Positions 17,169 to 44,001 of a DNA stretch of 64,000 bases are shown piece after piece. Origin of the DNA: an uncultured Thermoplasmatales archaeon (lineage in GTDB: Archaea > Thermoplasmatota > E2 > UBA202 > DSCA01); NCBI GenBank assembly GCA_964514975.1, contig CAZESS010000004.1:33708-97707 (forward strand), read 5' to 3'. Under the pieces are notes generated by a model. That model was given only the letters and a program-made list of their open reading frames with translations, was not told the origin of the DNA and ran no database searches. How positions within the stretch are numbered: position 1 is the first letter of the stretch; the number at the start of each line of letters is the position of its first letter. The translations under genes were made by a program, and so were the position numbers.

Positions 17169-19205
17169 GTGGCAGAAGAACAGGAAGAACTGAAGGAGCA
17201 GCTTCCACCCATAGATACATGGATGCAGGAGCAGGACGTCGAAACGTCGGATGACATCGAGATACCCGATACGTTGATGGAGCAGGTCATCGGACAGGAT
17301 CATGCCGTCGAAGTCGTCCGGCAGGCCGCCCGGCAGAAGCGCCATATCATGCTCATCGGCGACCCGGGCACCGGCAAATCGATGATAGCCCGGGCGATGA
17401 CCGAGTTCCTGCCGACCGAGGAGCTCGAGGACATCCTCACCTATCCAAACCAGGACGACCCCAACACGCCTCGGGTGCGCATCGTTCCCGCCGGCAAGGG
17501 CAAGGACATCGTCGACGCGATGAAGGCCGAGGCCCGAAAGCGCAAGCAGCAGCAGTCCCAGATGATGGCCACCATCCTCGCACTCATCGTCGGCGGTGCC
17601 ATCATCGGCGCCATCGTCACCGGTGAGCTCACCATCGCCCTGTTCGGCATCATCGCCGCGGCGATGATATATCTCATCGGGATGCGCGGCGGCATGATGC
17701 AGAATCAGGAGGAAAAGGACGTGCCCAAGCTCCTTGTGTCACATGAAGACGAGGACTCGCCGCCGTTTGTCGACGCGACGGCCGCACATTCGGGGGCGTT
17801 GCTCGGCGACGTTCGCCATGACCCGTTTCAGGCGGGCGGCCTTGAGACGCCGCCGCATCTGCGCGTTGAGGCAGGCGCCATCCACAAGTCACATCGCGGG
17901 GTCCTGTACATCGACGAGATCAACACGTTGAGCCTGCCGTCACAGCAGCACCTTTTGACGGCGATCCAGGAAGAGGAATTCCAGATCACCGGGCAGTCGG
18001 AGCGGAGCAGCGGCGCCATGGTGAAGACAGAGTCGGTGCCCTGCGATTTCATTCTGGTCTGTGCGGGCAACCTCGACGCCGTCGAGGGGATGCATCCCGC
18101 ATTGCGGAGCCGCATCCGGGGCTACGGCTACGAGATATATATCAAGAGCGACATGGAGGACAACGACGAAAACCGGACGAAGCTCATCCGATTCGTCGCG
18201 CAGGAGGTCGCCAAGGATGGCCAGATCCCGCATTTCGACCGGGCGGCCATCACCGAGATCATCCGGGAGGCACAGCGCCGGGCCGGCCGGAAGGGAAAGC
18301 TGTCGCTTCGCCTGCGTGAGCTCGGCGGGCTCGTCCGGGCGTCGGGTGACCTCGCCATCAGGGAGGAGGCGGACATCGTGACCGCCGATCATGTCGTCAG
18401 GGCGAAAGAGCTTTCCTCGTCGCTTGAGCAGCAGGTGGCTGAGCGCTACCTGCAGAAAAAGAAGACCTATCAGTCGTTCAAGACCATGGGCGCCGAGATC
18501 GGCACGGTGAACGGCCTCGCCGTTATGTCCGCCGACCCGTCTATGAGCGAGTTCGCGGGCCTGATTTTGCCGATCGTCGCCGAGGTCACCCCTGCCGGCT
18601 CCAAGTCGGAGGGCAAGATCATCGCCACGGGGCGCCTGGGAGAAATTGCCAGTGAGGCGGTGCAGAACGTCTCCGCCATCCTCAAAAAATACATGGGAAA
18701 AGACATTTCGAAGCGCGATATCCACATCCAGTTCGTCGGCACCTATGAGGGTGTGGAGGGTGACTCCGCCTCGATTTCTGTTGCAACGGCGGTCATCTCG
18801 GCGATGGAAAACGTGCCACTGTCACAGGAGGTCGGCATGACCGGGTCATTGAGCGTCCACGGCGCCGTGCTGCCCGTCGGCGGCGTCACCGCGAAGATAG
18901 AGGCAGCGGCCAAGGTCGGCCTGAAAAAGGTGCTCATCCCGCGGGCGAACATGCAGGACGTGCTCATCGAGGACAAGTACAAGGACCAGATAGAGATCGT
19001 GCCCGTTGAAACATTGAAGGACGTGCTGGACAACGTGCTGGTCGGCGGCAAAAAGGACGGGTTGATGCAGAAGCTCGAGAAGCTGCAGCCGTCGGTGGTC
19101 AGCAAGGTCGACCTGGAGTCGGAGCGGGCAACGAGCAAGGTACCCCGCACGGGAAAACAGCAGGGGCAGCCGCAGAGTGCCTCCAGCAATGATGGCGAGG
19201 GCTAG
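17169..19205 (+). CDS. lonB: Archaeal membrane-bound ATP-dependent protease LonB
   Basis: Walker A GDPGTGKS, two-TM insert, YIDEI, HPALRSR, catalytic EGDSAS and [10 protein letters not shown]. Confidence 0.96.
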
Positions 19206-20482
19206 CTCACCCAGCCGGGGCCGACCTGCGCCATAATATTTGTCCGTGTCGTCGTGAAATCGATGTCGTAGCTGTCATCGGCCGCGGGGCCATGCAGTGT
19301 GAGGGCGACCGCGCTGGATGTGTTGGTAAGGGTGTAGGACGATGCGCCAAGGTTTGCCCGGGTGAGCGTATTGTTCAGATAGCGATACCAGGCAGCGACA
19401 TGCTTGGTGGCGATGGTAATGGTGATGTTGCTGGCGATGTATTCCTGTTCCTGCATGGAGGAATAGTTGGTTTTGATGGAATAGGTGCCGTAGCCGCTCA
19501 CGCTGGTCTTACCCGCCAGGCCGGTGACGTCGACCATGCCGAGGCTGACCATATGCGTTGGGTCGCCGCCCGTGGTATCGTTTTGTATCGAAAGCGCCGG
19601 CGCTGATATGACGGCCTGACCCTGGCTCTGGGTGAGGATGACGGCACCGCCCTCGTAGACATAGGTCTGGTCGACGAAGTAGGCGTTTTCGGAGCTGTAT
19701 TCGATGGTGCCCATGCGGATGGTTCTGCCGATGGAGCCCCCGGGGTCGTAGCGGCTGCCGGTCATGACGAATGCGCCGCCGTTGGTGTTCGAGCTGTCGA
19801 ACGACATGGTGAACGGTGTCGACAGGAAGGGCAGGATACGGGTGGAAAACCGGTATCCGTCGTCGAGCAGGTTTACAATGTAGCTCGCGTTTTTGGGAAT
19901 CCATGCCACCGGCTGTTTGTAGACGGGGACCGCCGACAGGTTGGACACCCGGAGGTCGAGCTGCCAGAAGTCAGCAGAGAAGCTCGACACGGTCACGTTG
20001 ACATATGCGGTGCCCGTCGACGCGTTGAAGTAGTCACCGCTGTAGAGATTGCTTCCATGGAGCTGGAGGTCGAAGGAGCTGAGGGAGCGAACGTTGGTCA
20101 GGTTGCCACCGGTTTTTTCGACGTTGGACATGCCCGTGGAGGAGAGCCCGTCCCCTGCTATGTCCACCTGGAAGCCGCTGTTCGCCGTTGAAAGGATGCT
20201 CAGGGACCCAAAGGCGCGGGCTGACACGAAAAACGGGAGCTCTTTGCTGCCGAGGGTGATGGAGTTGATGAGAGACATGTCCCGCTGCGCCATCGTCTCG
20301 ATGTCTATCGAGGCTTTTATCTGGGAGAACTGGTTGGCAACGGTGTCCATGTGCTCTGCCTCCCGGTCCTTCATCCAGTTGGGGACATAGTATACCTGGA
20401 CGAGGACGATGACCGCGACGAACAGGCTCACCATCAGGATAGCGACGACGACGCCGACCTGTCCGCGCTCGTTTTTTTCCAT
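19202..20482 (-). CDS. Pilin-like protein with a putative class III signal peptide
   Basis: Likely start [45 protein letters not shown]; also [20 protein letters not shown]-like TTATTTAAA lies about 25 nt upstream on the minus strand. Confidence 0.75.
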
Positions 20483-20562
20483 CGGGGAAATAACCGCCCC
20501 TGGTTTAAATAAGTTTATGAAAAATTTGCTGTCTGCATCTGGCTCGCCGTGTTCCCGGTGTT

Positions 20563-23238
20563 TCATGACAGCATCCCCCGTCTGAACATGAGGTATATGG
20601 TCGCCCCAGCACCGATGATTGCGACGGCGGCGCCGATGATGAGCCAGGAGGGTCCACCGCTGTCGTCGTCTCCTCCGGGGACGGAAAACTGCATGGTTTG
20701 TTGGTTGTTGTCCTCGTTTTGCTCGTGGATGTCATCGTTCGGGTCGACATCCGCTTTGAGCGTGTGGGTTCCGGCGGTGACGTTGACGGCCTGCGTATGC
20801 TCTACCTGGCCGCCGGCTTCGATGGAGGGCAGCATGATGGAGGCTATCACTGTGTCGTCCATGATGATGTCCAGCGATGTCTGGTTTGCATTTCCGGTTC
20901 CGTTGTTGGCCACGGTGACGGTGACCTGAACCGTGTCACCGGCGTCCGGTGATGCAGGGGTCATGGCCAGGCCGGCGAGTATGAGGTCGGGCTGCAATGG
21001 CTCCGGCGCTGCCACGGATATCTCCGTGCTTGTTTCGTCGGTCATGCCGTCGTTGTCCGTCACGGACAGCGTGACCGTGTAGGTGCCGTCTTCGCTGTAG
21101 CTATGCGACGGATTCTCCTGGATGGCAGTGGCGCCGTCTCCGTAGCTCCACTGCCATGCGGTGATGCTGCCGTCGGGGTCGCTGCTCTGGTCGGTAAACG
21201 TCACGGTGCGGCCGTCCATGCTGTATGAGAAGGTAGCGGTGGGCGGCCTGGGCTCCGGAGGCGGAGGCGTGGGCTCCTGCCGGACCATGAAGCTCCATGT
21301 GTCCGATTGGGTGGCGGCGGCGCCGTCGTCGGCGACCGCATACCAGCGATATGTGGCGGCGTAGCTCAGGCCGCTCCATGTCACGCTGGCCGTATCACCG
21401 CTGGCAACGGCGGCTACAGACTCTATTTCGCTGCCGACATCCGTGTAAAACGTGACATCCATACTGTCTCCATCGGGGTCGAATACCGTGACCTGCAGGG
21501 TAACCGTCCGCGCCGTGCCGCTCGCCCCATCATTCGGCGAGGGATTGGACGGCTGCTCTGGCGGCTCGTTCACCGGCATGGTCTCGGTGGTAAACATCCA
21601 TGCCTGGGAGGTAGTGGCGTTGCGGCCGTCGTCGGCGACCGCATACCAGCGATATGTAGCGGCGTAGCTCAGGCCGCTCCATGTCACGCTGGCCATGGTG
21701 CCGCTGACCACGTCGGATATTGTATCGATGATGTCGTCGTTGCTGGCATCGTGAAAGGTGACATTCATCGAGTCGCCGTCCTGGTCCGCAACCGAAACCT
21801 GCAGTACAGCGTTCCGGGATACATTGTTCGCTCCATCATCCGGCGAGGGGTCGGATGGCTGCTCCGGCGGATTGTTGGCCGTTACCGTGACATCCCGCCG
21901 GGTTGTGTTAATCGCCCCGTCGTCATCGGTGACCGTCAGGGCGACCGTGTAGGTGTCGGCATGCTCATAGACATGCGTGGGGTGCTGCTCATGGGCGGTG
22001 GTACCGTCGCCGAAATCCCATGTCCAGTTGACGATGTCGCCGTCGTCGGTGCTCTCGTCGGTGAACGCAACCGGGTGTCCCGCACGGGGTTCCACCGGGG
22101 TATAGGAAAAATGTGCGGTGGGTGGCGGACTGGCAATTGTGAGCATCGCCGTGGTGGTGTTCGTCAGCCCGTCGTCGTCCGTCACGGACAGCGTCACCGT
22201 CTGGTTTCCCATTGCCTGATACCGATGGGTGACAACGGTGCCCGTATCGCCGGCGCCGTCTCCAAATGCCCAGGTGTAAGCGACGATGTCGCCGTCGGGG
22301 TCGCTGCTGTTCGCTGCGTCGAAGGTAACGGTCTCGTTTTTCACGGGCATCCGGGGATGCCATGCAAACGACGCCGTCGGCGCAACCGGCGAGGTAGACT
22401 CAAGGAGCACCTGTGCATTCCGGACATATACGGGTATCTCCTGTGCTGCCGTGTCGCTCAGGGTGACGTTCGAGATGTTGAGGTAACAGAGAGCGCCCTC
22501 GGTCCTGGGACTGAAGTGCAGCGTGGCGATATGGCCGCTCCCGGTTGTGTTTGTCCGGCCGACGAGGTGTACGATGCCGTCCTCCTGGCTCAGGGTGACG
22601 GATACCGGCGCGCCGTCGATTGAGCCATTGTCTGCCCCGGTGAACGACAGCAGGACGGGATCGTAGTGCAGGTCGAGGTTTACGCTGCTGAGGTTGGTGA
22701 CGTTGGAAACATTGATGGATGCATCGAAGGCTCCCTGCACGGTCTCGGGTGCCTGTACCTCGAGCAGCGTGCCGGCAACGGTAACCCGATGGCCATGCCA
22801 CGATGCCGGTATCTCCTGGCCGTCTCCATCGCTCAGGTTTCCCTCGATATCGAGGTCCGAATGGCCTGCTGCGGTGCAGGAAAACATTACCGTGGCGAGA
22901 TAGCCGGAGCCGTTGACCGGCTGCAATCCCATGTCGTTGACGATGTGCAGCACGCCGTCGTGCACGCTCGCGCTGGTCGGCACATCGGTGCCGTTGACGC
23001 TGCCGTTTTCGACCGATGCGACCGTGAGATATGAGGCGTTGTAGGAAACGGTAACGCTGGCCGCGTTGAATCCGGTCAGCTCTGACACTGATATCTGCAC
23101 CGAGATGTTCTGGCCGAGCAGCGCCATGTCCGGTCCCGCCAGGGACACCGATGGCTGCCCTTCGCCGGCGGCGGGCACGGCGGCGCCGATGGTCATGATG
23201 CAGCATGCACAGGCCAGCAGCGCAGCAACCTGTTTCAT
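20563..23238 (-). CDS. Membrane-anchored scaffoldin-like protein: 2 cohesin-like domains, 3 PKD, 2 Ig/FN3-like repeats, CARDB, C-terminal TM
   Basis: Signal peptide; cohesin-like units (VSYNASYL...NGSGYLATVMF and LHYDPVLL...GSGHIATLHF); PKD signatures (WDFGDG, VTDDDG); CARDB (PDL...VDPNDDIHEQNEDNN); TM helix followed by RR. Confidence 0.8.
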   Translation of the reverse strand: MKQVAALLACACCIMTIGAAVPAAGEGQPSVSLAGPDMALLGQNISVQISVSELTGFNAASVTVSYNASYLTVASVENGSVNGTDVPTSASVHDGVLHIVNDMGLQPVNGSGYLATVMFSCTAAGHSDLDIEGNLSDGDGQEIPASWHGHRVTVAGTLLEVQAPETVQGAFDASINVSNVTNLSSVNLDLHYDPVLLSFTGADNGSIDGAPVSVTLSQEDGIVHLVGRTNTTGSGHIATLHFSPRTEGALCYLNISNVTLSDTAAQEIPVYVRNAQVLLESTSPVAPTASFAWHPRMPVKNETVTFDAANSSDPDGDIVAYTWAFGDGAGDTGTVVTHRYQAMGNQTVTLSVTDDDGLTNTTTAMLTIASPPPTAHFSYTPVEPRAGHPVAFTDESTDDGDIVNWTWDFGDGTTAHEQHPTHVYEHADTYTVALTVTDDDGAINTTRRDVTVTANNPPEQPSDPSPDDGANNVSRNAVLQVSVADQDGDSMNVTFHDASNDDIIDTISDVVSGTMASVTWSGLSYAATYRWYAVADDGRNATTSQAWMFTTETMPVNEPPEQPSNPSPNDGASGTARTVTLQVTVFDPDGDSMDVTFYTDVGSEIESVAAVASGDTASVTWSGLSYAATYRWYAVADDGAAATQSDTWSFMVRQEPTPPPPEPRPPTATFSYSMDGRTVTFTDQSSDPDGSITAWQWSYGDGATAIQENPSHSYSEDGTYTVTLSVTDNDGMTDETSTEISVAAPEPLQPDLILAGLAMTPASPDAGDTVQVTVTVANNGTGNANQTSLDIIMDDTVIASIMLPSIEAGGQVEHTQAVNVTAGTHTLKADVDPNDDIHEQNEDNNQQTMQFSVPGGDDDSGGPSWLIIGAAVAIIGAGATIYLMFRRGMLS
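21322..21694. repeat. 70-bp near-identical direct repeat (21322-21391 and 21625-21694), period 303 nt
   Basis: One mismatch in 70 nt; encodes ASVTWSGLSYAATYRWYAVADDG in both tandem domains. Confidence 0.9.
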
Positions 23239-25736
23239 GCCAATCCCAGGATCATCTGGATAACGAGGGTCACGTCGGCGGTGGTCACCGTGCCGTCAGC
23301 GTTGGCGTCAGCCGGCGGCGGATACTCCGCGCCGGGATGAGCGGCAAGGTGCTGTACGACCAGGTCTGTCTTCGTGATGTCGAGCGCGTTGATGCGGCCG
23401 TCCATGGTGGCGTCGCCGCGTCGCCAGACCGATATCTCCCGCGATGTCACCTGACTGTTTCCGTAGCTGTCGGTCGTGCTCAGCGTCACGGTGTAGGAGC
23501 CAGGCTGGCTGTAGGTATGGGATACGTTCGGACCCGTTGCGCTTCCGCCGTCGCCAAACGTCCATGTCCATGTGGCTATGCTGCCGTCGGCGGTACCGTT
23601 GAACGACACGGTTTCGTTGACGAACGGGAATGAATGAGTGTAGTTCACCGCTGTACGCTCCACCGTCGTGAACAAACGGGTCGGGGATGTCGTGGTGGCC
23701 ATGCCGTCCGATGCCGTCACATGCCAGGTATAGGTTTGCCCGTGCTCGAGGGTGCAGGCGACGCTCATGGTGCCGTTGCCGGTCTCCGTGGTGTGCACTG
23801 CCGTTCCGTTGAGATAAAACACGGCGTCCATGGTGTCGCTGTCGGGATCGGTGACCGTGGCTCTGAGGGAAAGGTTTGCATTGGTGGTGCTTCCGTTGCC
23901 GGGGGATTCCAGCGCGATGGATGGCGGATGGTTGTCGCCGGCGGGAACCGTGACGTTGCGCTTTTCGCCATATGCGATCCGCCCGGTGTCGCCCACGGCG
24001 ATTGCCCGGTAGTAATAGGTCTTGCCTGCTGCAACGCCGGGTATGCTCGCATTGAAACCGCCCGTCCGGTTGGTGGCCACAACGTTGGTGGAGGATTTTT
24101 TGCCGTTCCAGTATTCGAACCAGAGGTAGCATGATGTGCTGTCGCCGAGCGCTGTTAGGTTGCCGTGCAGCGTGGCGTTTTCTCCGGTGATGGTGGCCTG
24201 TCCCGTGGTGACCGTTGGGGCTGCGGGCACGGATGTCATCCGGAATGACAGCATGGTGCCGTTGTATCTGCCCTGGCTGTTGTTGACGACGGCCCGGTAA
24301 TGGTAGGTGGTGTTCCCGGCGAGTCCTGTTACCACCGTGCTGACCGGGCCCTCGCCGGTGATTGTCTGCACGGGCGTGGTCATCGTGAGATTATCGTTTT
24401 GGCCGTATTCGAACCAGACCTCGCATGTCTGGTCGCCGCCCATGTCGGTGACGTTTGCCTGCAGCACGACCGCGTGCTCCACCGAGCCGGTGTCCACCTG
24501 CGCCTTGACCGCCGTGGTGGTAAACGTGCCGTCCTGCCCGTAGGTGGCGCCCGCGCTGTTTTCGGCTACCGCCCGATAATGATAGGTCGTGCCCGGCTGG
24601 AGTCCGGTCAGCGTGCCGGTGAAGGAGCCGTCGTCAAGGGACATTGCCTGGGTGGCCGAGCCGTAGGCCGTCGTTGGCCCGTATTCGAACCATACAGTGC
24701 ATTGTTCGCCGCCCCAGTCGTCAAGGGTGCCCCTGAGCGTGGCGGTGCTGCTGGTGACATTGTCGGCGCTCCCGGTTGTCACGGCGGGCCGGACGACATG
24801 GGTGGTAAACGTTTTGGTGGAGCCATCTGTCTCCCCGGCGGTGTTGCTGGCATACGCCCGGTATTGATAGGTGGTGTCGAGCGACAGGTCGGTGAGCGTG
24901 TGGGAAAAGCTCCCGGAAGAATGCATCGTGGTATTCCCGACGGCGACATGGCTGCCGTCCGTCCAGTATTCGAACCATACGGTGCAGTTGTTCGCGCCCG
25001 GGCTGCTCAGGTAGCCGTTCAGCCTGGCGCTGTCGTAGTCGACCGAGCTCGCCGCGTTGGTTGACACCGAGGGCTTCGCCGCCGATGTGTGAAACGTTTT
25101 GTCGTCTCCGTAGCTCTTTTTTTGGCTGTTCTCGGCGACGGCCCTGTAATGATAGGTGGTGTCGGGGTCGAGGCCTGACACCGAGATGGAAAACGAGCCG
25201 GTGCCCGTTTTTTCAACCTTGTCGTCGGTCGATTGGCCATAGGACTGGCTCGTGCCATACTGGAACCATACCTGACAGGTGCCCGTATCCGGGTCGTTCA
25301 GGTCGTTGAGCGTTCCATGCAGCGTTGCGCCGCCGCTGCCTACATCGCTCTCGTCGTTTGTAACAACAGCCGGGAAGCCGACGAGGGAAAAACTGATGTT
25401 CCGGGATGGCTCGCTGACGTCGAGCACGAAGCTTTTGCGGTTTTCCTGCTGGTCATGAACGCAGGACACCTGGATGGTGTCCCCGTTTTCGCAGTTTTCC
25501 AGCGCCGACAGATCCGCCTGGTAGTATCCATCGCTGTTCGTGGTGACAGTCATAAGCGTTGACTTGGACACATCTTTCACCGTCACGGTCACGCCGGACG
25601 GCAGCGTATCCCCGTCAGCGTTTTTGATGACACCGTAGACGGGAAACGACTGGTCGAGCGCGTCGCTCGAAAGCAGCATCGGTATCAGGCTGGTCAACAG
25701 CAGGATGGCTATCATGACACTTTGTATTTTTTTCAT
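23235..25736 (-). CDS. Secreted FN3-like repeat/PKD protein with a C-terminal dockerin
   Basis: Signal peptide; about five repeats of WFEYG...TTYHYRAVAEN; one PKD; C-terminal GDATMDGRINALD...ADANADGTVTTAD duplicated Ca-binding loop-helix typical of dockerins. Confidence 0.85.
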   Translation of the reverse strand: MKKIQSVMIAILLLTSLIPMLLSSDALDQSFPVYGVIKNADGDTLPSGVTVTVKDVSKSTLMTVTTNSDGYYQADLSALENCENGDTIQVSCVHDQQENRKSFVLDVSEPSRNISFSLVGFPAVVTNDESDVGSGGATLHGTLNDLNDPDTGTCQVWFQYGTSQSYGQSTDDKVEKTGTGSFSISVSGLDPDTTYHYRAVAENSQKKSYGDDKTFHTSAAKPSVSTNAASSVDYDSARLNGYLSSPGANNCTVWFEYWTDGSHVAVGNTTMHSSGSFSHTLTDLSLDTTYQYRAYASNTAGETDGSTKTFTTHVVRPAVTTGSADNVTSSTATLRGTLDDWGGEQCTVWFEYGPTTAYGSATQAMSLDDGSFTGTLTGLQPGTTYHYRAVAENSAGATYGQDGTFTTTAVKAQVDTGSVEHAVVLQANVTDMGGDQTCEVWFEYGQNDNLTMTTPVQTITGEGPVSTVVTGLAGNTTYHYRAVVNNSQGRYNGTMLSFRMTSVPAAPTVTTGQATITGENATLHGNLTALGDSTSCYLWFEYWNGKKSSTNVVATNRTGGFNASIPGVAAGKTYYYRAIAVGDTGRIAYGEKRNVTVPAGDNHPPSIALESPGNGSTTNANLSLRATVTDPDSDTMDAVFYLNGTAVHTTETGNGTMSVACTLEHGQTYTWHVTASDGMATTTSPTRLFTTVERTAVNYTHSFPFVNETVSFNGTADGSIATWTWTFGDGGSATGPNVSHTYSQPGSYTVTLSTTDSYGNSQVTSREISVWRRGDATMDGRINALDITKTDLVVQHLAAHPGAEYPPPADANADGTVTTADVTLVIQMILGLA

Positions 25737-28700
25737 GTTTTCACCTCTATGTGATACTGACCGGACTGCGCTATCCTGAGAACGGCGCAGTCTCCGGGAT
25801 GGATGACGAAGTCATATTCGGGCGGGGAGACACCGACGACATAGCTGTCAAAGCTGCCAGTGCTGGTATTCCACCGGCTCACCACGCTCCCAGGGGGCAT
25901 GATAGCGCCGCCTATCTGCGACGCGAGCGCCGACGCCTGTACGGCGGTGACGCTGCTCCACACCACGTGGTTGGCGACGTTGTCGCTGTTTTTGTGGAGC
26001 TGGACGATCCGGTCCGCCAGCCGGTAGGCCTGCTCGGTGAAGTTGCCCGCGGCTGCAACGCGGAGTACCACCGCGTCGTAGGGATGGATGACGAAGTCAT
26101 ATTCGGGCGGGGAGACACCGACGACATAGCTGTCAAAGCTGCCAGTGCTGGTATTCCACCGGCTCACCACGCTCCCAGGGGGCATGATAGCGCCGCCTAT
26201 CTGCGACGCGAGCGCCGACGCCGTTATGTTGTCGCCCAGCCAGGGGATATAGTTGACCACGTTGTTGGCGTTTTTGACGATGTGGATGGTGGTGTCAACT
26301 GGCACGGTTTTGCTCATGGTGGCGTTTGCGCTGCCGTTGGTAATGGTGAGCGTGACGTTGTAATAGTTGCCGATGTGGTAGGTATGCGAGGGATTTGTCT
26401 GGTTGCTTGTTTTGCCGTCCCCGAAAGTCCACTGCCATGTGGCGGCATACGACGAGTTATCATGGAAGGCTACGGGGCTGCCGGTGGCGGGGTCTGCCCC
26501 ATAGGTGAAATCGGCTGCCAGGTATGTGCCGACGGATATGTGCGCGGATGTGCTGGCGGTGGCGTTGTCGTCGTCGGTAACGGTGAGCGTAACGGTGTAG
26601 CCTCCATCCTGGCTATATCGATGTGTCACGTCTGTACTCGTGTTCTCGTATTTTATGGTGCCGTCGCCGAAGTTCCATGTCCAGTTGACGATGGTGCCGT
26701 CGGGGTCAGATGCGTTGGGGGAGACGCCTATCTGCATCCCGCTCTGGGCATATCCGAAATCGGCGGCCGGTGGAACGTTGTCCACGGTGACGTTCTGCTG
26801 CACCTGGCTGGATGCGCCGTCGTCGTCGGTCACGGTGAGCGTGACCATATAGGTGCCATCGTCTTGATAGCTATGGGTGGCGATGGCGCCCGTAGTCGTG
26901 GTGCCGTCGCCGAAGCTCCAGTTGTACCCGGTGATATTTCCGTCGGGGTCGGTGGAGCCTGATGCGTTGAACGTAATGGTATCGAGGTCGGTGGGCTGCC
27001 CCGGCGTGTAGGTTAAGGTCGCTGTCGGCGGCACGTTTTCAACCGTTATCTGCCTGGACAATGTGGCGGTGGCGCTGTCATTGTCGGTGACGGTCAGCGT
27101 GACCGTGTAGGTGGCGTCCTCGCTGTAGCTATGCGTGGGATGCTGAGCAGTGCTGGTGTTGCCGTCGCCAAAGGTCCAGTGCCATGCGGTTATGCTACCG
27201 TCGGGGTCATTGCTGTGATCTGTGAACGTTATGTTTTCCCGGCTGACCGGGGAGGCAGGACTGAAGGTAAAGTTTGCCGTGGGAAATATGGTTATGGAAA
27301 ACTGCCCGCTGAATGATGCAAGGTTCCCCAGTGTGTCGTTGGCGTGGATGGTGACGTTGTAGCGTCCCTGCTGGCTGTAGCTCTGTGTGAGGAAATACAG
27401 TGAGGAGGTGTTCATTGTTTTGTGTGCCATGGTGTCGCCAGCATGGGTGATGGTGATGGACACGTTCTGCATCGCGAGGTTGTCGGCAACGGTGCAGGAC
27501 ACGTTGACCGTCTCGTTTGGCTCCTGTATCCCCGGACTGATGGAGAGATTGGTCATGTGGGGCGGCATGGTGTCAACGATGGTGAACTGGTGGATGGATG
27601 AATTGGAGACGTAGTCGTTCACGTCGGTTGCCCATATCCTGTAGCTGTAGTTGCCGAGCGATGGGTATGTTTGGTTGTGGAAATATATGCCGTTGCAGTC
27701 GTCGTCTATACCGGCAGGGTCCATGCTCGTGTTGATGCTGCTGCCGTCCGGAAAGGTGACGTTTATGGTGACGGATGACAGGGCGACGTTGTCGCTGGCG
27801 TTGCATGATATGTTAACGGGGTAACCATACTGTTTTTCCTGAGGAACGTCCTGCACGTCGTGTATTTCCGGGGGCATCGCCGGGTGGAAAATCTGGAATG
27901 TATAGGGGTTGCTCGTGTTGCTGTTGCCGCTCGGGTCATCTGCCCATATTTTCACGGAATAGTTGCCGGCGGTGTTGTATGGTGCCTCGTGCCACCATGT
28001 CGTGCCATCGTTGCTGTGCATGCTCATGTTGTCGGAGGTGGGACCGGTGATGTTTATCCATACCTGGTCGACTGCTACGTCGTCGGTGACCCGGCAGGTC
28101 ACGTTGACTCTGCCCTTTATTTCCTGGGGGTTTGGATACGCGGAAACATTCTCTATCCGGGGCGGCTCGACATCCCTGACGGTTATCTCCCCTGTCATGG
28201 TATCGTTGCCGTCATCCCCGTCGGTGACGGTCAGCGTGACAGTGAAATTGCCGTTGGAGGCATATGCGTGGGTGGGATTGTCGTTGTTGCTCGTTGCGCC
28301 GTCGCCAAAGCTCCATTCGTGTTCGTAGACATCACCGTCGGGGTCATATGACAGGTCGGTGAAGGAGACGGGTTCTCCCACGGTTGCATTGTCCGGCGTG
28401 AACGAGAAATCGGCGACGGGCAGAATGTTGCGGATGGTAACCTCTTGCTGTGCGGTGTCCCATGCTCCATGGTTGTCGGTGACGGTCAGGGTAACGGTGT
28501 AGGTCCGGTTTTTGCTGTACTGATATCCGACCGTTTCCCCGGTCATCGTTGTGCCATCTCCAAGATTCCATGTGTAGTTTATGATGCTGCCGTCGGGGTC
28601 AGACGAGCTGGTTGCATTGAAGGTGACGGTATCCAGCCTGGTTGGGCTGGCTGGTGTGTATGTGAAGCTGGCCGTCGGCTTGTTGGCTATAACAAATTTT

Positions 28701-29695: not shown

Positions 29696-29704
29696 CGTGA
29701 CCTC

Positions 29705-32700
29705 TTATTCGACACGGCTGATGAGCGGACGGATGTCCTCTTCGCTGCTGGGGCCAGCAATGTCGTAATAAACGCTCCAGTACCAGGCGGTGCCGCTCTC
29801 GGGCTGCTGCGTTGCATTGGGATACCGCTGCTCGTAGTTCTTCCAGTAGTTGCCCTCTTTTTCCTCGGAGTCCGGATTGTACCAGCTGTTGCCGCCGCCT
29901 TCGTCGTAGCACAGGCTGGAACTCCTGAAGCTGGTGTTTTCGAAGTTGTTCGAGTATATCTTGTTGTTTTTGGAATTGTTTCCAAGGATGTAGACGCCGT
30001 AGCTGGCGGACAGGTCGATGGTGAACGTGTTTTCTTTGAGGACATTGTTACTCGTGGAAGAGGTCAGGTAGATTCCTCTACCATTGTATTCAAGTATGTT
30101 ATCCTGGATTGTGCCATCCGTGGCGGCTTCCATATATATGCCTTGCGTGCTGCCCGAGATGGTGTTGCCGGTGATGGTACAGTAGGTGGAGGATTGCACG
30201 TAGATGCTCTCGTTTGTGTTCGATGACATGGTGTTGCCGCTGATGGTGCAGGACCCCGAGTTCACGATGTATATTCCCCGTTCATTGTAGGATATGGTGT
30301 TTCCGTTTTCGACATGGGTGCCGTTGGAGCTCCTGATCTCTATGCCGATGCTGTTGTTGCAGATAGTGTTGCTCTGTATGGGGCGCGACGAACCAAGCGT
30401 CGATGAAAGCACTTTAACGGCGGCCGAGGTGTTATGCCAGTACAGGTGGTTGTTTTTAACGTCGGCGGTGTCGGAGTTGTTGATGACGATGCCCGGCGCG
30501 TTCTGCCACAGCGTGTTGTTGTTGACGACGTTGTTATCGGAGGAGGAGGCAAGGTAGATACCCGAGCCAGCGTGGCCATAGACCCGGTTTCCTCCCTCCG
30601 CGTTGTTGCCGACGCTGTTGCTGTTTGAAGCGGAGAGATAGATGCCGTCCGTGTTGCCATACACGGTGTTGTCAAAGATGCTGTTGCCGTTCGAGGACGA
30701 CAGATAGACGCCCCGCTGGTTGCCATACACCGTGTTATCCTCGATGGAGTTGCCCTTCGAGGTGGCCAGGATGATGCCATTGCCGCCATTGTCATGCACC
30801 GTGTTGTTACGTATTTCGTTGTTGCCCGCGGTCGCCGGCTTGGAGTTCTCCAGGTAGATGCCGTGGGACGTGCTCGAATGGACGACGTTGTCCACGATGA
30901 TGTTTCCGTTTCCTCCAGACGAGGAGAGATGAATACCGATGTCGTTGTGCTCGACGGTGTTGGACAGCACGTCGTTGTTGTTCCCCGAGGTGAGCAGCAG
31001 GCCCGTCTGCGTGTTGTTGTGGAGATAGTTGCCGGCTATCCGGTTGTTGGAGGAACTCGTTGACAGGATGCCGAAGCCCTGGTTCCATCGGATGACGTTG
31101 CCGGTGATGTTGTTCGTGGACGAGGACTGCACCTTCATGCCGTTGCCAGTGTACTCGACGAGGTTGTCAACAATGGTGTTTTCCTGAGCGTAGTTGTTGA
31201 GATAGATGCCGCTGATGCTGCTGTTGTTGATGGCGTTGCCGGTCACGTTGTTGTAGCTGCTCCCCTCGACATAGATACCATAAACGTTCTCCCAGAGCGT
31301 GTTGTTGTAGATGGCGTTGGTGTTCGAAAACGAGTACAGACGGATGCCGCTTTGCCCGTTGCCATATATATCGTTCTGTGTTATCTCGTTTTCATTTGAC
31401 GACTGCATGTAGATACCATGTCTGCCGTTTCCAGTGATAACGTTGTAGATAACGACGTTTCCGCCGGGGAGATTGTAGAGAGCCCGGTTGAAATGTATGC
31501 CGTCGCCGGTGCTGTTGGAAATTGTGCAATGCTCAATGGTGTTGTTCTTTGAATCATAGATGTATATGCCCCGCGAGTTGTTGTGAACCGTGTTGTTGTA
31601 GATGGTGTTGAAGTTGGAGGAGGAAGACAGAGATATCCCGGTTTCCGTGTGATTCATAATCTGGTTTGCCTGTATCACGTTGTTGCTCGAGCTGCTCCCC
31701 AGGATACCGTACTGGTTGCTTTCTATCTGGTTGTGCACGATGTCGTTGTTGCTTGAATCCTGTAGCTCCAAACCGTTCAGATTTGACTGCAGGGTGTTAT
31801 CTTCGATGGTGTTTGAATGGGAATAGTCGCTTATCAGGAAAGCGCTCCCGGAGTGGTCGGTTATCACGTTGTCGGTAACGATGTTGCTGTTCGATATGTT
31901 GAGATAGATGCCTCGCGTGTTGTTTTGTATCGTGTTGTATCTGAGGGTGTTCAGGTCGGTGGCGGACACGAGTTCTATTGCGGTGCCGGTGTTGTCTTTG
32001 ATGGTGTTGTATGAGACGGTGCATGACTCGAGGTTTTCCAGGTAGACAGCATTGTCCGTAAGGCGAATTGTGTTGTTGGTGATGGATGCAAGGCTGGAGC
32101 GGTACAAAGAGATACCCATCTGGCCTGTTGACTGGATGCTGTTCTCCCTGATTTTGGTGCCCAGGCTGTATCTGCCATGGATGCCATAGCTGGCGTTTTT
32201 GAGCGTGCATCCGCGGATGGTATTGTTGTGGGCGTTGTCGAGCGATATGCATTTGTCGGCTATGTTGGTAGCCAGGGTACAGTTAATGATGGAGCAGCGG
32301 GCAGCCCCATCGAGTAAAATACCATTTTGAGCTGAATTGCCCTTGATAATGACGTCTTTCACGGTCGTCCAGTCTGCCCGAAGGGTGAGAATGTTGCCAC
32401 CGCTGGCCCGTATCGTGGGCGTGTCGATACCGATGATGTTTACCGATTTATCGACGGAAAGCTGTTCATCGTATATCTGTCCGCTTGACCCTATAACGTT
32501 GACGGTGCCTCCGGGCGGAACGGCAGCGATGCCGGCCTGTATGGTTTCCAGATGGGTTTCGTCGTCGAGCCATCCTGCCGGCGGGTCGTTGTTCACCCAG
32601 ACCTCGGTGTTGTAGCCGGCTCCTTCGGCCATCCATGCCAGTACATTGCGAAGATAGTTCGTTCGGCTTTCCTCTGTTATCTCGTCCGCGTTGAGGTCGA

Positions 32701-35290
32701 AGCCCAGGATGATGCTCCGGTTTTGGTCACGGGTTGCATCGATGGCGAAGTTGCCGGTGATGCTGCTGGCGGTGGTGCCGACGACCTCTATATCGTCAAT
32801 ATAGTACCCGTAGTCACGGCCTGAACTGCTTGTGTCGAGCGTCCAACGTAACTGTATGTTTCCTCCCGTATAGCTTGAGAGATCATATGTCTGGGTGGTC
32901 CATGTACCGGGTTCGTTTGCCCGATCGAATGTATCGAGTTCATGCCAGCTTCCATCATATACCTCTAACGTGACTTGGTCATATGAGTCAGCAAATCTGT
33001 ACCGGTGCTTGAATTCGAGTGTTGCACCATAATATGTGGAGAGGTCTATTCCGGGGGATTTCAGCCAGCAGTCTGCATCATTGTTATAATAATGCGAATA
33101 ACCTGACACGTCAGTTCCGTACACATAGCTACTCCTGTACGGGAAATAAGGCGACCCATACCCTTGTCCCCCCCAACCGCTCTCCCATTCATCCTCATCC
33201 CCTCCATGGTCCCATCCGTTGAGGTTATCACAATCATAATATTCAATACGGCTTTCTTCACTGGGGCCATAGAGGCTGTTCGCTTGTATAGAATAGTTGA
33301 ACAGCGGGTCTGACTGCTTGTTGAGGCCGTAGAGCTCGATGGGGGAAGAGAAGTTGAGGTAGGCTCCATTGGATGACGTTCCGGGCATGCCGACCAGCGA
33401 GCCGGATGCAGTGTAGGGCTTTCCCCGGAAATAGTCATCCGATATACGGTCGGAATAGGATACCCAGTCTGAATCATATACGATGCCGCCCTGGTCATTA
33501 CCGTCGTAGTACAGGCCGAGCGTGGTGCCCAGGTCCACCTCGCTCTGGGTGACACCGTTGCCGGGATAGTTGACGAGGTCGCGGACCGCGTAGCTCCCGG
33601 ACATCATGAACACGCCGGCTGTATGGTTGCCCTCCATGTGCTGCTCTATTTCACGCATGTGGTCGGAGACGTCGTCGCCGCCCTCCGTCATGGGGGTGCT
33701 CCAGTAATTTGGGTAGGTGGTATAGGGATAGTTGTTGGCTCCGCCGCCGTCGCCGGGGAAGTTGCCGGTGCTCCAGATGACGATGTCGAACTGGTTGAGC
33801 ACCGTCCCTGAAATATTTGCCCCGCGGAGGTCCGGAGAGGTATCCGCATCGTCGGTAAACACCCACTGGTCGAGCGCCTTTCCGTATGAGTAGTCGGAGT
33901 CGGGCATGATGTTCTGGCAGGCGGCCTTGAGATTGTCAATGCCGCTCTCCCATCCCGTGGGGGTGTTATCAACGAACAGGAACCGGGGTGAGGATGCGGT
34001 CGCTGGCGAGCTCACCGTGATGTTTTTCTGTTCGACGGCCCAGCCCCCACTGTCGTCCGTGACGTTGAGCGTCACCGTGTAGTTGCCCGGCGTGTTATAC
34101 TGGTGGCTGACGGTCGAGCCGTAGGCAGTGTCGCCGTCACCGAAATCCCATGACCAGTTGACGATGTTGCCGTCCTTGTCGTAGCTATACGGGGAGCCGC
34201 CGTCGAAGGTCACGCTTGAAGCGGTGGTGATGTTCGCCGAGCTCGTCGAAAACCCTGCCTGGGGACTGATGTTCGGCACGTCCACGTTTATCTCCTTGGT
34301 GCTGGTATCGCCGTTGTCATCGGTGACAATCAGTGTCACCGTATAGGTGCCGCTCTGGTCATAGGTATGGCTGGGGTTTTGGCTGGTCGAGCTGGTGCCG
34401 TCGCCGAAGTTCCATTCATATGAAACGATTTCGCCGTCGGGATCGCTCACGTTTGAGGTGAAATCGATGGTGCCGTTGACATTCGGGTTGACGCTCCAGG
34501 AGAAATTGCTGTCTGGCGGTACGTTGCCGGACACCGGTATCGGCGGTGGCACGTGGACGCCGTGGGAATGAGCGGTGCTCGTCGTGTTTGTCTCACCTTC
34601 GTCGTCGACGACAGTCAGCGTGACATTATAGGTGCCTTCGGATGCATAGGTGTGCACGGGTGTCGGCCCGTAGGCATCTATGACCCCATCGCTCGTCCAG
34701 TCCCATCGGTATTCCTGGATGCTGCCGCCGTCGGGGTCATAGCTCTCCGTTGCATTGAAATATAGCGTTTCCTCTGTCTTTGGGTCATATGGGGTGTAGG
34801 TGAACTGGGCGACCGGCGGCATGGTGTGCAGGATGCCCTGCTGAAGGACGCCGCTCATGATGATGGAGTTGCTCGGTTTGTCGATGATGGCGACCGATAT
34901 CTGCCAGCGGGCGACCTCGCCGAACATGCTCGTGCAGTCAAGCTCGATGTAATCGCCGACGTCCCAGCGGCCATTGTCATTTGAGTCATGAAAGACGGCT
35001 GAGAGAGCGCTCCCTTCCAGCGTGTGTGACTGGTTGTCTCCTTTTTTGATCACGACCCTGAGTTCCTCTAGTGGTATGGAGTCTCCTCCACGGTTTTCGA
35101 CGGTGGCCATCGTGTTATCGTCCATCGATCCGACCATGTGGACGCTCGGTGCGGACGGCGAGCTGTCCATTGAGAGCACGTAGACGATCAGCGATGAAAA
35201 TATGATGACGGCGATGGCGAGCAGGAGCACAGTGCCGATGATTTCTGAGACACCTTCTCTTCCTTTTATTCTTCCAATTTTTTCCATCAT
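29705..35290 (-). CDS. Giant (1861 aa) type IV pilin-headed adhesin: Pilin_N, 3 PKD, alpha/beta domain with an inserted jelly-roll, ~900 aa parallel beta-helix
   Basis: KGREG/VSEIIGTVLLLAIAVII (archaeal Pilin_N-type class III signal), VENRGGDSIP, PKD motifs, dozens of GIYLxxSxxNxIxxN repeats, terminal GNYW; RBS GGGGAGG. Confidence 0.85.
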   Translation of the reverse strand: MMEKIGRIKGREGVSEIIGTVLLLAIAVIIFSSLIVYVLSMDSSPSAPSVHMVGSMDDNTMATVENRGGDSIPLEELRVVIKKGDNQSHTLEGSALSAVFHDSNDNGRWDVGDYIELDCTSMFGEVARWQISVAIIDKPSNSIIMSGVLQQGILHTMPPVAQFTYTPYDPKTEETLYFNATESYDPDGGSIQEYRWDWTSDGVIDAYGPTPVHTYASEGTYNVTLTVVDDEGETNTTSTAHSHGVHVPPPIPVSGNVPPDSNFSWSVNPNVNGTIDFTSNVSDPDGEIVSYEWNFGDGTSSTSQNPSHTYDQSGTYTVTLIVTDDNGDTSTKEINVDVPNISPQAGFSTSSANITTASSVTFDGGSPYSYDKDGNIVNWSWDFGDGDTAYGSTVSHQYNTPGNYTVTLNVTDDSGGWAVEQKNITVSSPATASSPRFLFVDNTPTGWESGIDNLKAACQNIMPDSDYSYGKALDQWVFTDDADTSPDLRGANISGTVLNQFDIVIWSTGNFPGDGGGANNYPYTTYPNYWSTPMTEGGDDVSDHMREIEQHMEGNHTAGVFMMSGSYAVRDLVNYPGNGVTQSEVDLGTTLGLYYDGNDQGGIVYDSDWVSYSDRISDDYFRGKPYTASGSLVGMPGTSSNGAYLNFSSPIELYGLNKQSDPLFNYSIQANSLYGPSEESRIEYYDCDNLNGWDHGGDEDEWESGWGGQGYGSPYFPYRSSYVYGTDVSGYSHYYNNDADCWLKSPGIDLSTYYGATLEFKHRYRFADSYDQVTLEVYDGSWHELDTFDRANEPGTWTTQTYDLSSYTGGNIQLRWTLDTSSSGRDYGYYIDDIEVVGTTASSITGNFAIDATRDQNRSIILGFDLNADEITEESRTNYLRNVLAWMAEGAGYNTEVWVNNDPPAGWLDDETHLETIQAGIAAVPPGGTVNVIGSSGQIYDEQLSVDKSVNIIGIDTPTIRASGGNILTLRADWTTVKDVIIKGNSAQNGILLDGAARCSIINCTLATNIADKCISLDNAHNNTIRGCTLKNASYGIHGRYSLGTKIRENSIQSTGQMGISLYRSSLASITNNTIRLTDNAVYLENLESCTVSYNTIKDNTGTAIELVSATDLNTLRYNTIQNNTRGIYLNISNSNIVTDNVITDHSGSAFLISDYSHSNTIEDNTLQSNLNGLELQDSSNNDIVHNQIESNQYGILGSSSSNNVIQANQIMNHTETGISLSSSSNFNTIYNNTVHNNSRGIYIYDSKNNTIEHCTISNSTGDGIHFNRALYNLPGGNVVIYNVITGNGRHGIYMQSSNENEITQNDIYGNGQSGIRLYSFSNTNAIYNNTLWENVYGIYVEGSSYNNVTGNAINNSSISGIYLNNYAQENTIVDNLVEYTGNGMKVQSSSTNNITGNVIRWNQGFGILSTSSSNNRIAGNYLHNNTQTGLLLTSGNNNDVLSNTVEHNDIGIHLSSSGGNGNIIVDNVVHSSTSHGIYLENSKPATAGNNEIRNNTVHDNGGNGIILATSKGNSIEDNTVYGNQRGVYLSSSNGNSIFDNTVYGNTDGIYLSASNSNSVGNNAEGGNRVYGHAGSGIYLASSSDNNVVNNNTLWQNAPGIVINNSDTADVKNNHLYWHNTSAAVKVLSSTLGSSRPIQSNTICNNSIGIEIRSSNGTHVENGNTISYNERGIYIVNSGSCTISGNTMSSNTNESIYVQSSTYCTITGNTISGSTQGIYMEAATDGTIQDNILEYNGRGIYLTSSTSNNVLKENTFTIDLSASYGVYILGNNSKNNKIYSNNFENTSFRSSSLCYDEGGGNSWYNPDSEEKEGNYWKNYEQRYPNATQQPESGTAWYWSVYYDIAGPSSEEDIRPLISRVE

Positions 35291-35430
35291 TGTTATTCAT
35301 TCCTCCCCAGCTTATATATTTTCTTATATATTTCTTTCCTATATCGCTAACTTTTTGCTATCATTATCGTGCTACACTATTACAACGTGTTCCTGGTATA
35401 TAAAGATTATCGTACGATTCGCAAAATATG

Positions 35431-40284: not shown

Positions 40285-40357
40285 GCTTCCCATCCCGACA
40301 CACAAAGAATATATACGTTATATATAAACGTGTTGCTTTCGCCTTCCTGAAGCGGTG

Positions 40358-41107: not shown

Positions 41108-41169
41108 TGGATGGCACAAACACTGAAGGGCTTAAATCATTTGTTCTCCGGCGGCCGCATCGGATGTCG

Positions 41170-41689
41170 TCACCATGCATCTTTTTTCCGCTTCACGCAG
41201 AGGCATATCAGCCCCGTGACAGCGAGAGCGATGGAGGCGAGCAGCGCGATGTTTTTGAGGGGTGTGAAGCCGTTTGCCACCCGGGCGATGCCATCAACGC
41301 GGACGGGGAACCTGTACAGTATCGTCGCCAGACAGATGTTCTCTCCGATGTCGGCGCCGCCGGCAAGCAGCGGCAGAAACAGGGGAGTGTACAGCACGCT
41401 GTCCAGCGGAAACATGCGCTGCAGCAGGTATCCGATAACGAGCACGAGCAACGCCATATAGGCAAGCGGGTAGTAGAGACCGGCTAGACCCACATATAGG
41501 TATACATTCCTTCCCGGTTCCCCCATGCCGGAAAGCGTGTCGTATACCTCGCCCGGCGTATCGTTGCTTTTAAGGTCGATGACCTGTTCGCCGGTCGTCG
41601 TGTAGATATACAGTGTCACCGTACTCTATCGAGAAAACATCGAACACAGCCAGCGCGATATACACCTGCCTTTGGCGAATCAGACACAT
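41170..41689 (-). pseudogene. Probable frameshifted multi-pass membrane protein gene
   Basis: ATG at 41689 with a GGGAG RBS gives MCLIRQRQVYIALAVFDVFSI (hydrophobic) and stops early. The membrane-protein body (DLK..TPGEVY..L..MGEPGR..Y, YPLAY, DIGEN) continues in another frame to 41170. The 520-nt span is not a multiple of 3. Confidence 0.5.
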
Positions 41690-41917
41690 ATCTCTCCCTG
41701 TAGACAGTAACAGGAGCACCTACTTGTGTATATCGATTTCCGCCTCCAGAAAACAGGGCATATCTCGATAGACAAAGAAAAACAGCTAAAAATACGGGAC
41801 GAAGACCATGTCGTGCCGCCCGGCCGAAAAAAATAGATAATTTTTTAATTGATGGCCGTTTTGTGCTGTGGATACGGGGACCGGCGTTTTGCCACGCCTC
41901 CCTCCCCCTCGTATCCG

Positions 41918-43999: not shown

Positions 44000-44001
44000 C
44001 C

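Follow-up and report, generated by a model that had tools for sequence, protein, structure and literature searches.

In Sulfolobus, sugar-binding proteins that carry class III signal peptides are assembled by PilB and TadC into the so-called bindosome (PMC4858521), and archaeal type IV pilus loci are described as sometimes including large putative adhesins and C-terminally anchored S-layer-like proteins (PMC4858521). Among bacteria, PilB of Streptococcus sanguinis is presented as a modular type IV pilin bearing a vWA module (bioRxiv 10.1101/2021.01.27.428410). Non-cellulosomal cohesin-dockerin systems have been reported in Archaeoglobus fulgidus and in anaerobic methanotrophic (ANME) archaea, where they are presumed to act in adhesion or tethering (PMC9012536; PMC13452462), with solute-binding proteins given as the common dockerin cargo in the ANME lineages (PMC9012536). 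The parallel beta-helix fold is described as common to pectate lyases and tailspike depolymerases (PMC13452462). In this report we describe a cluster of five genes, P1 to P5, in a 64,000-nucleotide stretch of the genome of an uncultured archaeon of the Thermoplasmatota (contig CAZESS010000004.1; the whole stretch is referred to below as the window). Judging from sequence and structure predictions, we favor, with about even confidence, the reading that this cluster encodes a membrane-tethered, probably N-glycosylated and apparently non-enzymatic surface assembly that derives from a type IV pilus and serves adhesion or display.

The five open reading frames (ORFs) lie in the same orientation on the minus strand and span positions 35290-19202 of the window (Table 1). 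As proposed in an initial annotation made from the letters of the window, the first four are tightly coupled: exact coordinates place a 9-nt gap containing GAGGT between P1 and P2, and 4-nt overlaps at both the P2/P3 and the P3/P4 junctions. The domain architectures proposed for the five proteins were all confirmed using Pfam. The host assembly comprises 1.96 Mb in 66 contigs, is 98.9% complete and has a GC content of ~60%.

P1 is a giant protein in which a pilin head precedes an array of PKD domains and a long beta-helix. Pfam returned Pilin_N (PF07790) at 53.2 bits (cut-off 25.2), 3 PKD domains, Beta_helix at 412 bits and NosD at 359 bits. The sequence reads K-G-R-E-G followed by V-S-E-I-I-G-T-V-L-L-L, with ~20 hydrophobic residues after the leader, and the motif is kept in all 6 orthologues read; we infer that cleavage would occur after the Gly of R-E-G, before V-S-E-I-I-G. 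P1 fell short of the cut-off of the NCBIfam model arch_flag_Nterm (18.4 vs 20). The PKD region found PDB matches in collagenase PKD domains, and also matched the archaeal S-layer entry 1l0q (9e-7), a match that is non-specific. A look-up of residues 425-900 in the ESM Atlas gave scores of 0.85 at most, below the usable 0.9. The helix contains 17 para_beta_helix repeats and matched the NosD entry 7o0y at 33.5 bits. The architecture as a whole is common to 22 orthologue clusters, and the host genome contains no paralogue of either the P1 head or P5.

At the other end of the cluster, P5 matched DUF7289 in Pfam (34.9 bits, cut-off 27), with no Pilin_N match. Its leader, M-E-K-N-E-R-G followed by Q-V-G-V-V-V-A-I-L, conforms to a pattern present in 15/15 P5 orthologues, namely M-x(3-6)-[KRN][GA] followed by Q-V-G-[VI]-[VI]-V-A-I-L. 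Since the orthologue alignments begin at residue 22-32 of the long frame, the most likely start of P5 is the ATG at 20482. From this conserved Met the protein is 426 aa long, which corrects the 427 aa initially given. The longer, 454-aa frame would overlap P4 by ATGA, and the 28 additional codons run across a conserved motif that is AT-rich and promoter-like; this motif is identical in a relative of the same genus while the flanks diverge. An AlphaFold2 model of P5 built from a 36-row alignment (predicted local distance difference test, pLDDT, 85.5; predicted template modeling score, pTM, 0.73) consists of a helix at residues 5-65 and an all-beta head, a predicted shape that resembles the 'lollipop' of pilins. 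The model matched the archaeal S-layer entry 8c8l weakly and non-specifically (E 5.9e-3, TM-score 0.11), and a profile of the P5 family retrieved no match among PDB sequences. Taken together, hidden Markov model (HMM) searches uphold the pilin calls for both proteins, and for P5 structure prediction does so as well.

The link to type IV pili is stronger than the initial annotation could know, in that homologues of the P1 head and of P5 stand beside PilB and TadC genes in sister families. We examined 8 loci from other families of the class, chosen for their ~300-aa DUF7289 paralogues of P5. Gene order, read from BLAST alignments that covered the whole head against a small database and confirmed by Pfam in two loci, was PilB, TadC, small P1-head homologue, DUF7289 and larger P1-headed protein in 6 of the 8. 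The small P1-head homologues are pilins of 150-200 aa, and a KaiC-like gene is often present. In one sister locus, Pfam identified T2SSE, T2SSF, a 151-aa Pilin_N protein, a 309-aa DUF7289 protein and a 526-aa protein combining Pilin_N, DUF11 and VWA; in another, it identified a 1031-aa protein with Pilin_N and five InlB-type repeats, a DUF7289 protein, a 676-aa protein with Pilin_N, DUF11 and VWA, and a protein with NosD and PKD domains. Because a modular adhesive pilin accompanied by DUF7289 is found in these loci, we regard the combination as the norm in the class. P1 and P5 would then be a local version of this pilin set, in which the ATPase is no longer adjacent and three genes stand between the pair.

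The genes expected to process and assemble such pilins were located elsewhere in the host genome. Contig C1 carries a PilB3-like ATPase, two TadC-like proteins and KaiC-like ATPases, and the genome also encodes a second ATPase, two Peptidase_A24 genes and one 141-aa PilA-like pilin; over the whole genome, T2SSE exceeded its cut-off three times, T2SSF twice and Peptidase_A24 twice. A genome-wide scan for class III signals was discarded as too crude: its 19 matches were mostly ordinary signal peptides, and it missed both P1 and the small pilin.

P3 and P4 encode a dockerin and a pair of cohesins, respectively. P3 is laid out as a Sec signal, a CarboxypepD_reg-like domain, 5-6 fn3-like repeats, an Ig-like domain, a PKD domain and a C-terminal dockerin; the fn3-like matches arise through the Pur_ac_phosph_N and PhoD_N models, which are named for the N-terminal domains of phosphatases and are not catalytic. 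The dockerin loops, G-D-A-x-x-D-G-x-I-N-A-x-D and A-D-x-x-x-[DSN]-[GN], are kept in 8/8 P3 orthologues, and a profile of these 8 dockerins found type I dockerins as its best PDB matches, with 4fl4 at 8.7e-8. P4 consists of a Sec signal, two cohesins, a PKD/Ig array with 3 PKD domains, a CARDB domain (residues 749-848), a C-terminal transmembrane helix and a basic tail, and the transmembrane helix with its basic tail ends all 8 of the P4 orthologues read. Both halves of the P4 cohesin profile (8 rows) match solved cohesins: 2xdh at 3.2e-5, which we take to be a cohesin of A. fulgidus, 4ums at 4.6e-5 and 1g1k at 2.1e-4. The cohesin and dockerin calls thus withstood both HMM and profile-versus-PDB searches. 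When the P4 double cohesin and the P3 dockerin were modeled together, with two calcium ions, the complex scored 0.36 and one unrelated control 0.46; these scores speak neither for nor against binding.

Cohesins and dockerins are not confined to this cluster. A six-frame search of the host genome returned 7 Dockerin_1 and 8 Cohesin matches, and Pfam identified an enzyme family on 0/7 of the dockerin proteins. No protein in the host genome has more than two cohesin matches, and no carbohydrate-binding module (CBM) was found on P4. Four further host loci, which contain no pilins, have a dockerin gene immediately 5' of a cohesin gene. The firmness of these pairs varies: that on contig C5 was confirmed by whole-protein Pfam, that on contig C16 is weak on both sides, and for two of the four one partner is known from the six-frame search alone. 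The position of most dockerin genes directly 5' of a cohesin gene suggests orthogonal cognate pairs. The cohesin proteins of the host end in a transmembrane helix or, in the case of an 1862-aa protein on contig C14, in the same type of C-terminal module as P2, which is discussed below. By eye, the C-termini of the host dockerins on contigs C5, C14, C7 and C16 (loci L041 and L043-L045) fall into about three sequence types. We also noted a cohesin-PKD-CARDB protein (locus L046, contig C26 of the host assembly G000, 93-3122, minus strand) with a Cys-rich end and a sub-threshold match to Prok-RING_1 (22.3 vs 29.1 bits); in this protein, a surface cohesin may be linked to a zinc finger on the cytoplasmic side.

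P2 is laid out as a Sec signal, a NosD/beta-helix head (residues ~26-240), an Ig/PKD array (~241-1135) and a C-terminal tandem module, and it matched NosD, Beta_helix and 6-7 PKD domains in Pfam. Three copies of the module were scanned, and no Pfam family reached its cut-off in any of them (E up to 10); every ESM Atlas score for the P2 copy was below 0.9. An AlphaFold2 model of the P2 module reached a pLDDT of 89.9 and a pTM of 0.82. In the host genome, tblastn placed the module at the extreme C-terminus of 21 frames (~20 genes), and a six-frame profile search gave 26 matches; the carriers lie on contigs C3, C5, C7, C9, C11, C13, C14, C15, C19 and C23, among others (loci L055-L065). Fourteen module proteins were scanned: peptidase-family domains are present in 8 of them (S8 in two, M14, M28, C11, C13, C25 and, in one, a C25 propeptide only), and the other 6 carry NosD/PKD, FG-GAP or CarboxypepD_reg domains or are unassigned. 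Among public representative proteins, the module profile matched 2038 at E≤0.001, 843 at 1e-10 and 185 at 1e-30, and among the 150 best matches the module ended no more than 5 residues from the C-terminus in 135. Based on this distribution, we infer a role in surface retention or sorting.

Within the order to which the host belongs, the same module occurs in 10/12, 23/25 and 1/1 members of the three families, and outside the order in 3/22 genomes, with 1-57 copies per relative genome. In relatives with few copies, the P2 orthologue matches best, and P2 therefore looks like a core member of the cluster and not a passenger. Among 8 P2 orthologues, 7 end in the module, and the eighth is an unreliable frame containing unknown residues.

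All five proteins look exported, as the initial annotation had stated: hydropathy places N-terminal hydrophobic segments at residues 11-44 of P1, 1-25 of P2, 3-27 of P3, 1-26 of P4 and 5-37 of P5. The density of N-x-S/T sequons in P1-P5 is 2.4-4.6 per 100 aa, compared to 0-0.6 in 7 cytoplasmic neighbors. Relative to shuffled sequences of their own composition, sequons are enriched in P2 (60 vs 23.0±4.0), P3 (22 vs 10.9±3.0), P4 (25 vs 8.7±2.7) and P5 (10 vs 5.1±1.9), but not in P1 (45 vs 39.9±5.5). The claim of sequon richness therefore holds for all five against cytoplasmic neighbors, and beyond composition for P2-P5 only; these sites are candidates for N-glycosylation. Using Pfam and NCBIfam, we found no hydrolase or other catalytic family over threshold in P1-P5, in agreement with the lack of a recognizable hydrolase domain reported initially, and no match to a known S-layer family. 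Likewise, no NCBIfam model for an archaeosortase-type C-terminal sorting signal (PGF-CTERM and kin) matched any of the five proteins.

We next consider the conservation of the cluster. P5 is present in 54/61 genomes, including 12/12 of family f1 and 22/25 of family f2 within the order. A double cohesin of the P4 type occurs in 10/12 genomes of f1, in 23/25 of f2 and in 1/23 in other families, and Dockerin_1 occurs in 10/12 (f1), 23/25 (f2), 1/1 (f3) and 5/9 (f4) genomes and in 0/13 of the rest. The dockerin gene lies directly upstream of the double-cohesin gene, on the same strand, in 29/30 relatives with a strong cohesin match, the 30th match lying at a contig start. P3 is followed by P4 in 13/13 loci fetched, P2 by P3 in 12/13 (the 13th lying at a contig edge) and P1 by P2 in all 7 loci with visible upstream DNA. 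P1-P4 are contiguous in every visible locus of two families, with orthologues that are 31-62% identical, and the complete order from P1 through P5 to lonB is present in both f1 and f2. The P5-lonB tail-to-tail pair is kept even where P1-P4 have moved away. The proposed synteny is thus borne out across one order of uncultured Thermoplasmatota. The initial annotation had named failed domain calls, or a lack of both synteny and co-transcription, as outcomes that would speak against it; the domain calls pass and the genes are syntenic.

Variants of the cluster were also observed. The relative G036 (genus g8) has a P4 of 407 aa (locus L075, contig C135, 3439-4662, plus strand) with two cohesins, a PKD domain and a C-terminal dockerin in place of a transmembrane helix, which would correspond to an adaptor-scaffoldin-like form; G029 looks the same by coordinates. 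In G024 (locus L018, contig C2, 2427-6314, minus strand), P4 and P5 occupy one 1296-aa frame with no stop after the anchor, and this frame still contains the Met and leader of P5. A 2030-aa frame in G009 (locus L014, contig C5, 3816-9905, minus strand) joins a P2-like part to the CARDB and transmembrane end of a P4-like protein, without P3 or cohesins between. We rejected this fusion as Rosetta-stone evidence, given the unknown residues inside its PKD repeats; the frame probably arose through assembly or masking.

These findings suggest how a surface assembly derived from a type IV pilus might be put together. The prepilin peptidases of the host would cut P1 and P5, which the PilB/TadC machine, whose genes lie on another contig, would insert into the membrane or polymerize; either route would project the P1 beta-helix from the cell. 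P4 would be held in the membrane by its C-terminal helix, and the C-terminal dockerin of secreted P3 would plug into one of its two N-terminal cohesins. Secreted P2 would be retained via the C-terminal tandem module that it has in common with many other exoproteins of the host.

Several observations weigh against this reading. In genus g9, unrelated genes follow P1-P4 and P5 remains beside lonB, and P5 of the host probably has its own promoter, which would give a leaderless transcript, as judged from the motif in the P4-P5 spacer. Since P5 is separable in g9 and seems to have its own promoter, the five genes may not be one unit. The putative apparatus envisaged initially, combining pilus-type and cohesin-type assembly, stands with respect to its components, its synteny and the lack of a catalytic family, but P5 is less securely part of it. 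No PilB/TadC or prepilin peptidase gene lies within the window around the cluster. Neither the P5 model (TM-score at most 0.18) nor the P2 module model (at most 0.28) matched a PDB fold at E≤0.001, so the roles ascribed to the P5 head and to the P2 module are guesses. With respect to the other cohesins and dockerins of the host, whole-protein Pfam gave Cohesin in 2/5 other candidates, compared to 4/5 over cut-off in the six-frame search, and the dockerin of a 3616-aa host protein scored 22.2 bits in the six-frame search and was absent from the whole-protein scan. Because several of these calls are weak, a genome-wide connector network is less firm than the P3-P4 pair itself.

The separability of P5 and its promoter-like motif would be expected if the cluster were a set of co-located, independent modules, with P1 and P5 as accessory pilins, P3-P4 as a self-contained tether and P2 as one of many exoproteins bearing the module; such modules may share a locus and a promoter without building one apparatus. 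We consider this rather unlikely, despite further points in its favor: sister pilus loci have the P1-head/DUF7289 pair without P3 or P4, the four additional dockerin-cohesin pairs of the host stand apart from pilins, and the P2-type module occurs on ~20-26 unrelated exoproteins. Set against these are the contiguity of P1-P4 wherever they are visible across two families, the close junctions of these genes in the host and the apparent core status of P2. Single-copy conservation across the order, in a housekeeping neighborhood between smc-scpA-scpB and lonB, fits a structural role in the envelope equally with adhesion. We therefore also considered a structural coat, either S-layer-like or of a stalk-and-canopy type, in a lineage without a known wall, in which P4 and the pilin-type helices would stand in the membrane as stalks beneath a canopy of PKD, fn3 and beta-helix arrays. 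The high sequon density and the C-terminal anchor of P4 are consistent with such a coat, as are the weak, non-specific matches to 1l0q and 8c8l. However, known S-layer families went unmatched, the relatives of P1 and P5 are proteins of pilus loci, the large ones bearing VWA and InlB-type adhesion modules, and the replacement of the P4 anchor by a dockerin in one genus would be odd for the stalk of a lattice. A coat of this kind is, in our estimation, unlikely.

The description of the cluster as non-catalytic calls for caution. Parallel beta-helices include polysaccharide lyases and hydrolases, and ~315 aa of P1 are without a family assignment in Pfam or NCBIfam, so that 'non-catalytic' amounts to absence of evidence. 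These same two points, the first of them extending to pectate lyases and tailspike depolymerases, would be consistent with a cellulosome-like complex in which the P1 and P2 helices act as lyases or hydrolases on cohesin-dockerin and pilin anchors, and host proteins in which NosD-like helices co-occur with C11 or S8 peptidase domains do exist. We nevertheless find it very improbable that the cluster encodes such a complex: the searches for catalytic families in P1-P5 and on the seven dockerin proteins came back empty, the helices match NosD-type repeats and not lyase families, and the recognizable exoenzymes of the host carry the tandem module and not dockerins.

A bolder possibility, which we think quite doubtful, is that the cluster is the conserved hub of a lineage-specific display system with three connectors: the pilin anchors P1 and P5, the P3-P4 cohesin-dockerin pair and the tandem module, with P2 as the founding copy. 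The module would dock secreted S8, M14, M28, C11, C13 and C25 peptidases, along with further exoproteins, onto a receptor in the cluster, for which the spare P4 cohesin or an order-specific insert in P5 would be candidates. Such a system is conceivable because the order-restricted distribution of the module is the same as that of the P4-type double cohesin and of the long P5 form, because cohesin proteins end in either a transmembrane helix or the tandem module, and because the P2 orthologue is the best module match in relatives with few copies. If it exists, it would be the archaeal equivalent of a cellulosome, one that degrades protein.

Table 1. Features of the P1-P5 cluster in window coordinates
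Feature	Positions	Strand	Description and evidence
scpB-P1 intergenic region	35291-35430	-	AT-rich, TATA-like boxes, GGAGG 10 nt ahead of P1 ATG
P1	29705-35290	-	1861 aa, giant modular type IV pilin-like protein; ORF, translation, Pfam
P1 residues 1-165	34796-35290	-	Class III-type leader, hydrophobic helix and pilin head; Pilin_N at residues 12-83
P1 residues ~170-430	34001-34783	-	Three PKD domains (approximate bounds); PKD_4 179.7 bits, 3 stretches
P1 residues 431-900	32591-34000	-	Sub-threshold MAM-like stretch; InhA-like_MAM 23.7 bits, cut-off 26.9
P1 residues 901-1861	29708-32590	-	Long right-handed parallel beta-helix, NosD-like; Beta_helix in 8 stretches, NosD
P2	25733-29695	-	1320 aa, NosD/PKD protein; ORF, translation, Pfam, hydropathy
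P2 residues 1136-1320	25736-26290	-	Tandem module (2 x ~90 aa, last 185 residues); unannotated family, candidate surface-retention module
P3	23235-25736	-	833 aa, FN3/PKD and dockerin; ORF, translation, Pfam
P3 residues 774-830	23247-23417	-	Type I dockerin, two calcium-loop repeats; Dockerin_1 (PF00404) 28.8 bits, cut-off 22.9
P4	20563-23238	-	891 aa, two cohesins and anchor; ORF, translation, Pfam, hydropathy
P4 residues 26-285	22384-23163	-	Tandem cohesins; Cohesin (PF00963) 76.5 bits, cut-off 24.1, two stretches
P4 residues 863-886	20581-20652	-	C-terminal transmembrane anchor; hydropathy maximum 2.21
P4-P5 spacer	20483-20562 (80 nt)	-	AT-rich TATA-like motif ~26 nt before P5 ATG
P5	19202-20482	-	426 aa from conserved Met, DUF7289 pilin-like; long frame 19202-20566, 454 aa

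The genes upstream of P1 on its strand are smc, scpA and scpB, and a convergent lonB lies downstream of P5. The stop codons of P5 and lonB overlap (CTAG, 19202-19205), leaving no space for a terminator there. The scpB-P1 intergenic region contains the TATA-like boxes TTTATATA and two copies of AATATATAAG, and is a candidate promoter and leader for a P1-P4 unit. Scans for sigma-70 promoters and intrinsic terminators, both models being ill-suited to archaea, gave counts no higher than the shuffled expectation. GC content drops to 0.52-0.55 across P1/P2; we rejected a horizontally transferred island as its explanation, since the cluster is syntenic order-wide and the dip fits an Asn/Ser/Thr-rich composition.

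Further away in the window, the RNA polymerase genes at 45162-52998 are of the archaeal type. The A'' subunit (45162-46985, minus strand) seemed long for that subunit at 607 aa, and HHH_5 matches in two stretches precede its Rpb1 domain 5 region. Two plus-strand ORFs, at 40355-41461 (368 aa) and 43696-45522 (608 aa), matched no Pfam family, and for a 454-aa ORF at 41849-43213 Pfam identified only a C-terminal TrmB-type helix-turn-helix.

The members of the order are uncultured, small-genome Thermoplasmatota that are wall-less or poorly known, and the cluster offers a concrete, order-wide candidate for holding proteins at the surface and attaching to particles in such archaea. The many secreted peptidases of the host genome would fit a life spent degrading particle-bound protein. 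Moreover, the unannotated module marks much of the host exoproteome and could help to predict which enzymes sediment archaea retain at their surface. This module and the type IV pilus ancestry suggested for the flanking genes are, in our view, the most useful new points.

With respect to novelty, we found no description of the cluster or of the P2 module in the literature on DUF7289, Thermoplasmatota dockerins, Marine Group II/Poseidoniales, archaeal pilins with cohesins, or Thermoprofundales (supplements excluded); the main text of two papers on Thermoprofundales (MBG-D), a possible assignment of the host that its peptidase set brought up, makes no mention of pili, pilin, cohesin, dockerin or S-layer. 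We also found no published description of the PilB-TadC-Pilin_N-DUF7289 loci of the sister families. The idea of an undescribed system is therefore supported as far as the arrangement is concerned, but its components, namely cohesin-dockerin pairs outside cellulosomes, modular type IV pilins and surface proteins of the NosD-like kind, are all familiar from archaea.

Like the Clostridium thermocellum-type cellulosome, the cluster has the cohesin-dockerin plug and socket and an anchor with more than one cohesin, and one genus has an adaptor form. In contrast to the cellulosome, enzymes are not borne on its dockerins, P4 has just two cohesins, and there is neither a CBM nor an SLH anchor. A further parallel is with A. 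fulgidus and the ANME archaea, in which cohesins and type I dockerins are likewise found on non-cellulolytic surface proteins. As far as the parts of those accounts used here go, the present locus differs in its fixed pairing of a dockerin gene with a cohesin-anchor gene across an order, in the C-terminal transmembrane helix of the anchor, and in its position between pilin-like genes; its dockerin bears fn3/PKD/Ig arrays, whereas solute-binding proteins are the cargo described for ANME.

The bindosome resembles the proposed assembly in that a pilin export and assembly route holds a large functional protein at the surface instead of building a classical pilus. To the extent that the bindosome is covered in the source used, its cargo is solute-binding and not of the beta-helix/PKD kind, it belongs to another lineage, and the assembly genes that are not adjacent here are a further point of difference. 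P1 also resembles the bacterial modular pilins, in which, on the account drawn on here, a pilin domain carries a grafted module that a filament or a membrane stub presents for adhesion. P1 differs from these in its archaeal Pilin_N head and its far larger passenger (~1700 residues), and the comparison does not imply that P1 enters a filament.

The sister Thermoplasmatota pilus loci provide another close comparison. They share with the cluster the homologues of the P1 head and of P5, the class III-type leaders and the occurrence of large pilins with grafted modules. Relative to these loci, P1 and P5 are detached from PilB/TadC and bracket three extra genes, P2-P4; P1 carries PKD domains and a 900-residue beta-helix in place of DUF11 with VWA or InlB-type repeats; and P5 is ~130 residues longer than its ~300-aa paralogues. 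Taken together, these comparisons are consistent with the view that the pilin set of a pilus was rebuilt into a display device, with giant passengers grafted onto it and a cohesin-dockerin tether inserted between its genes.

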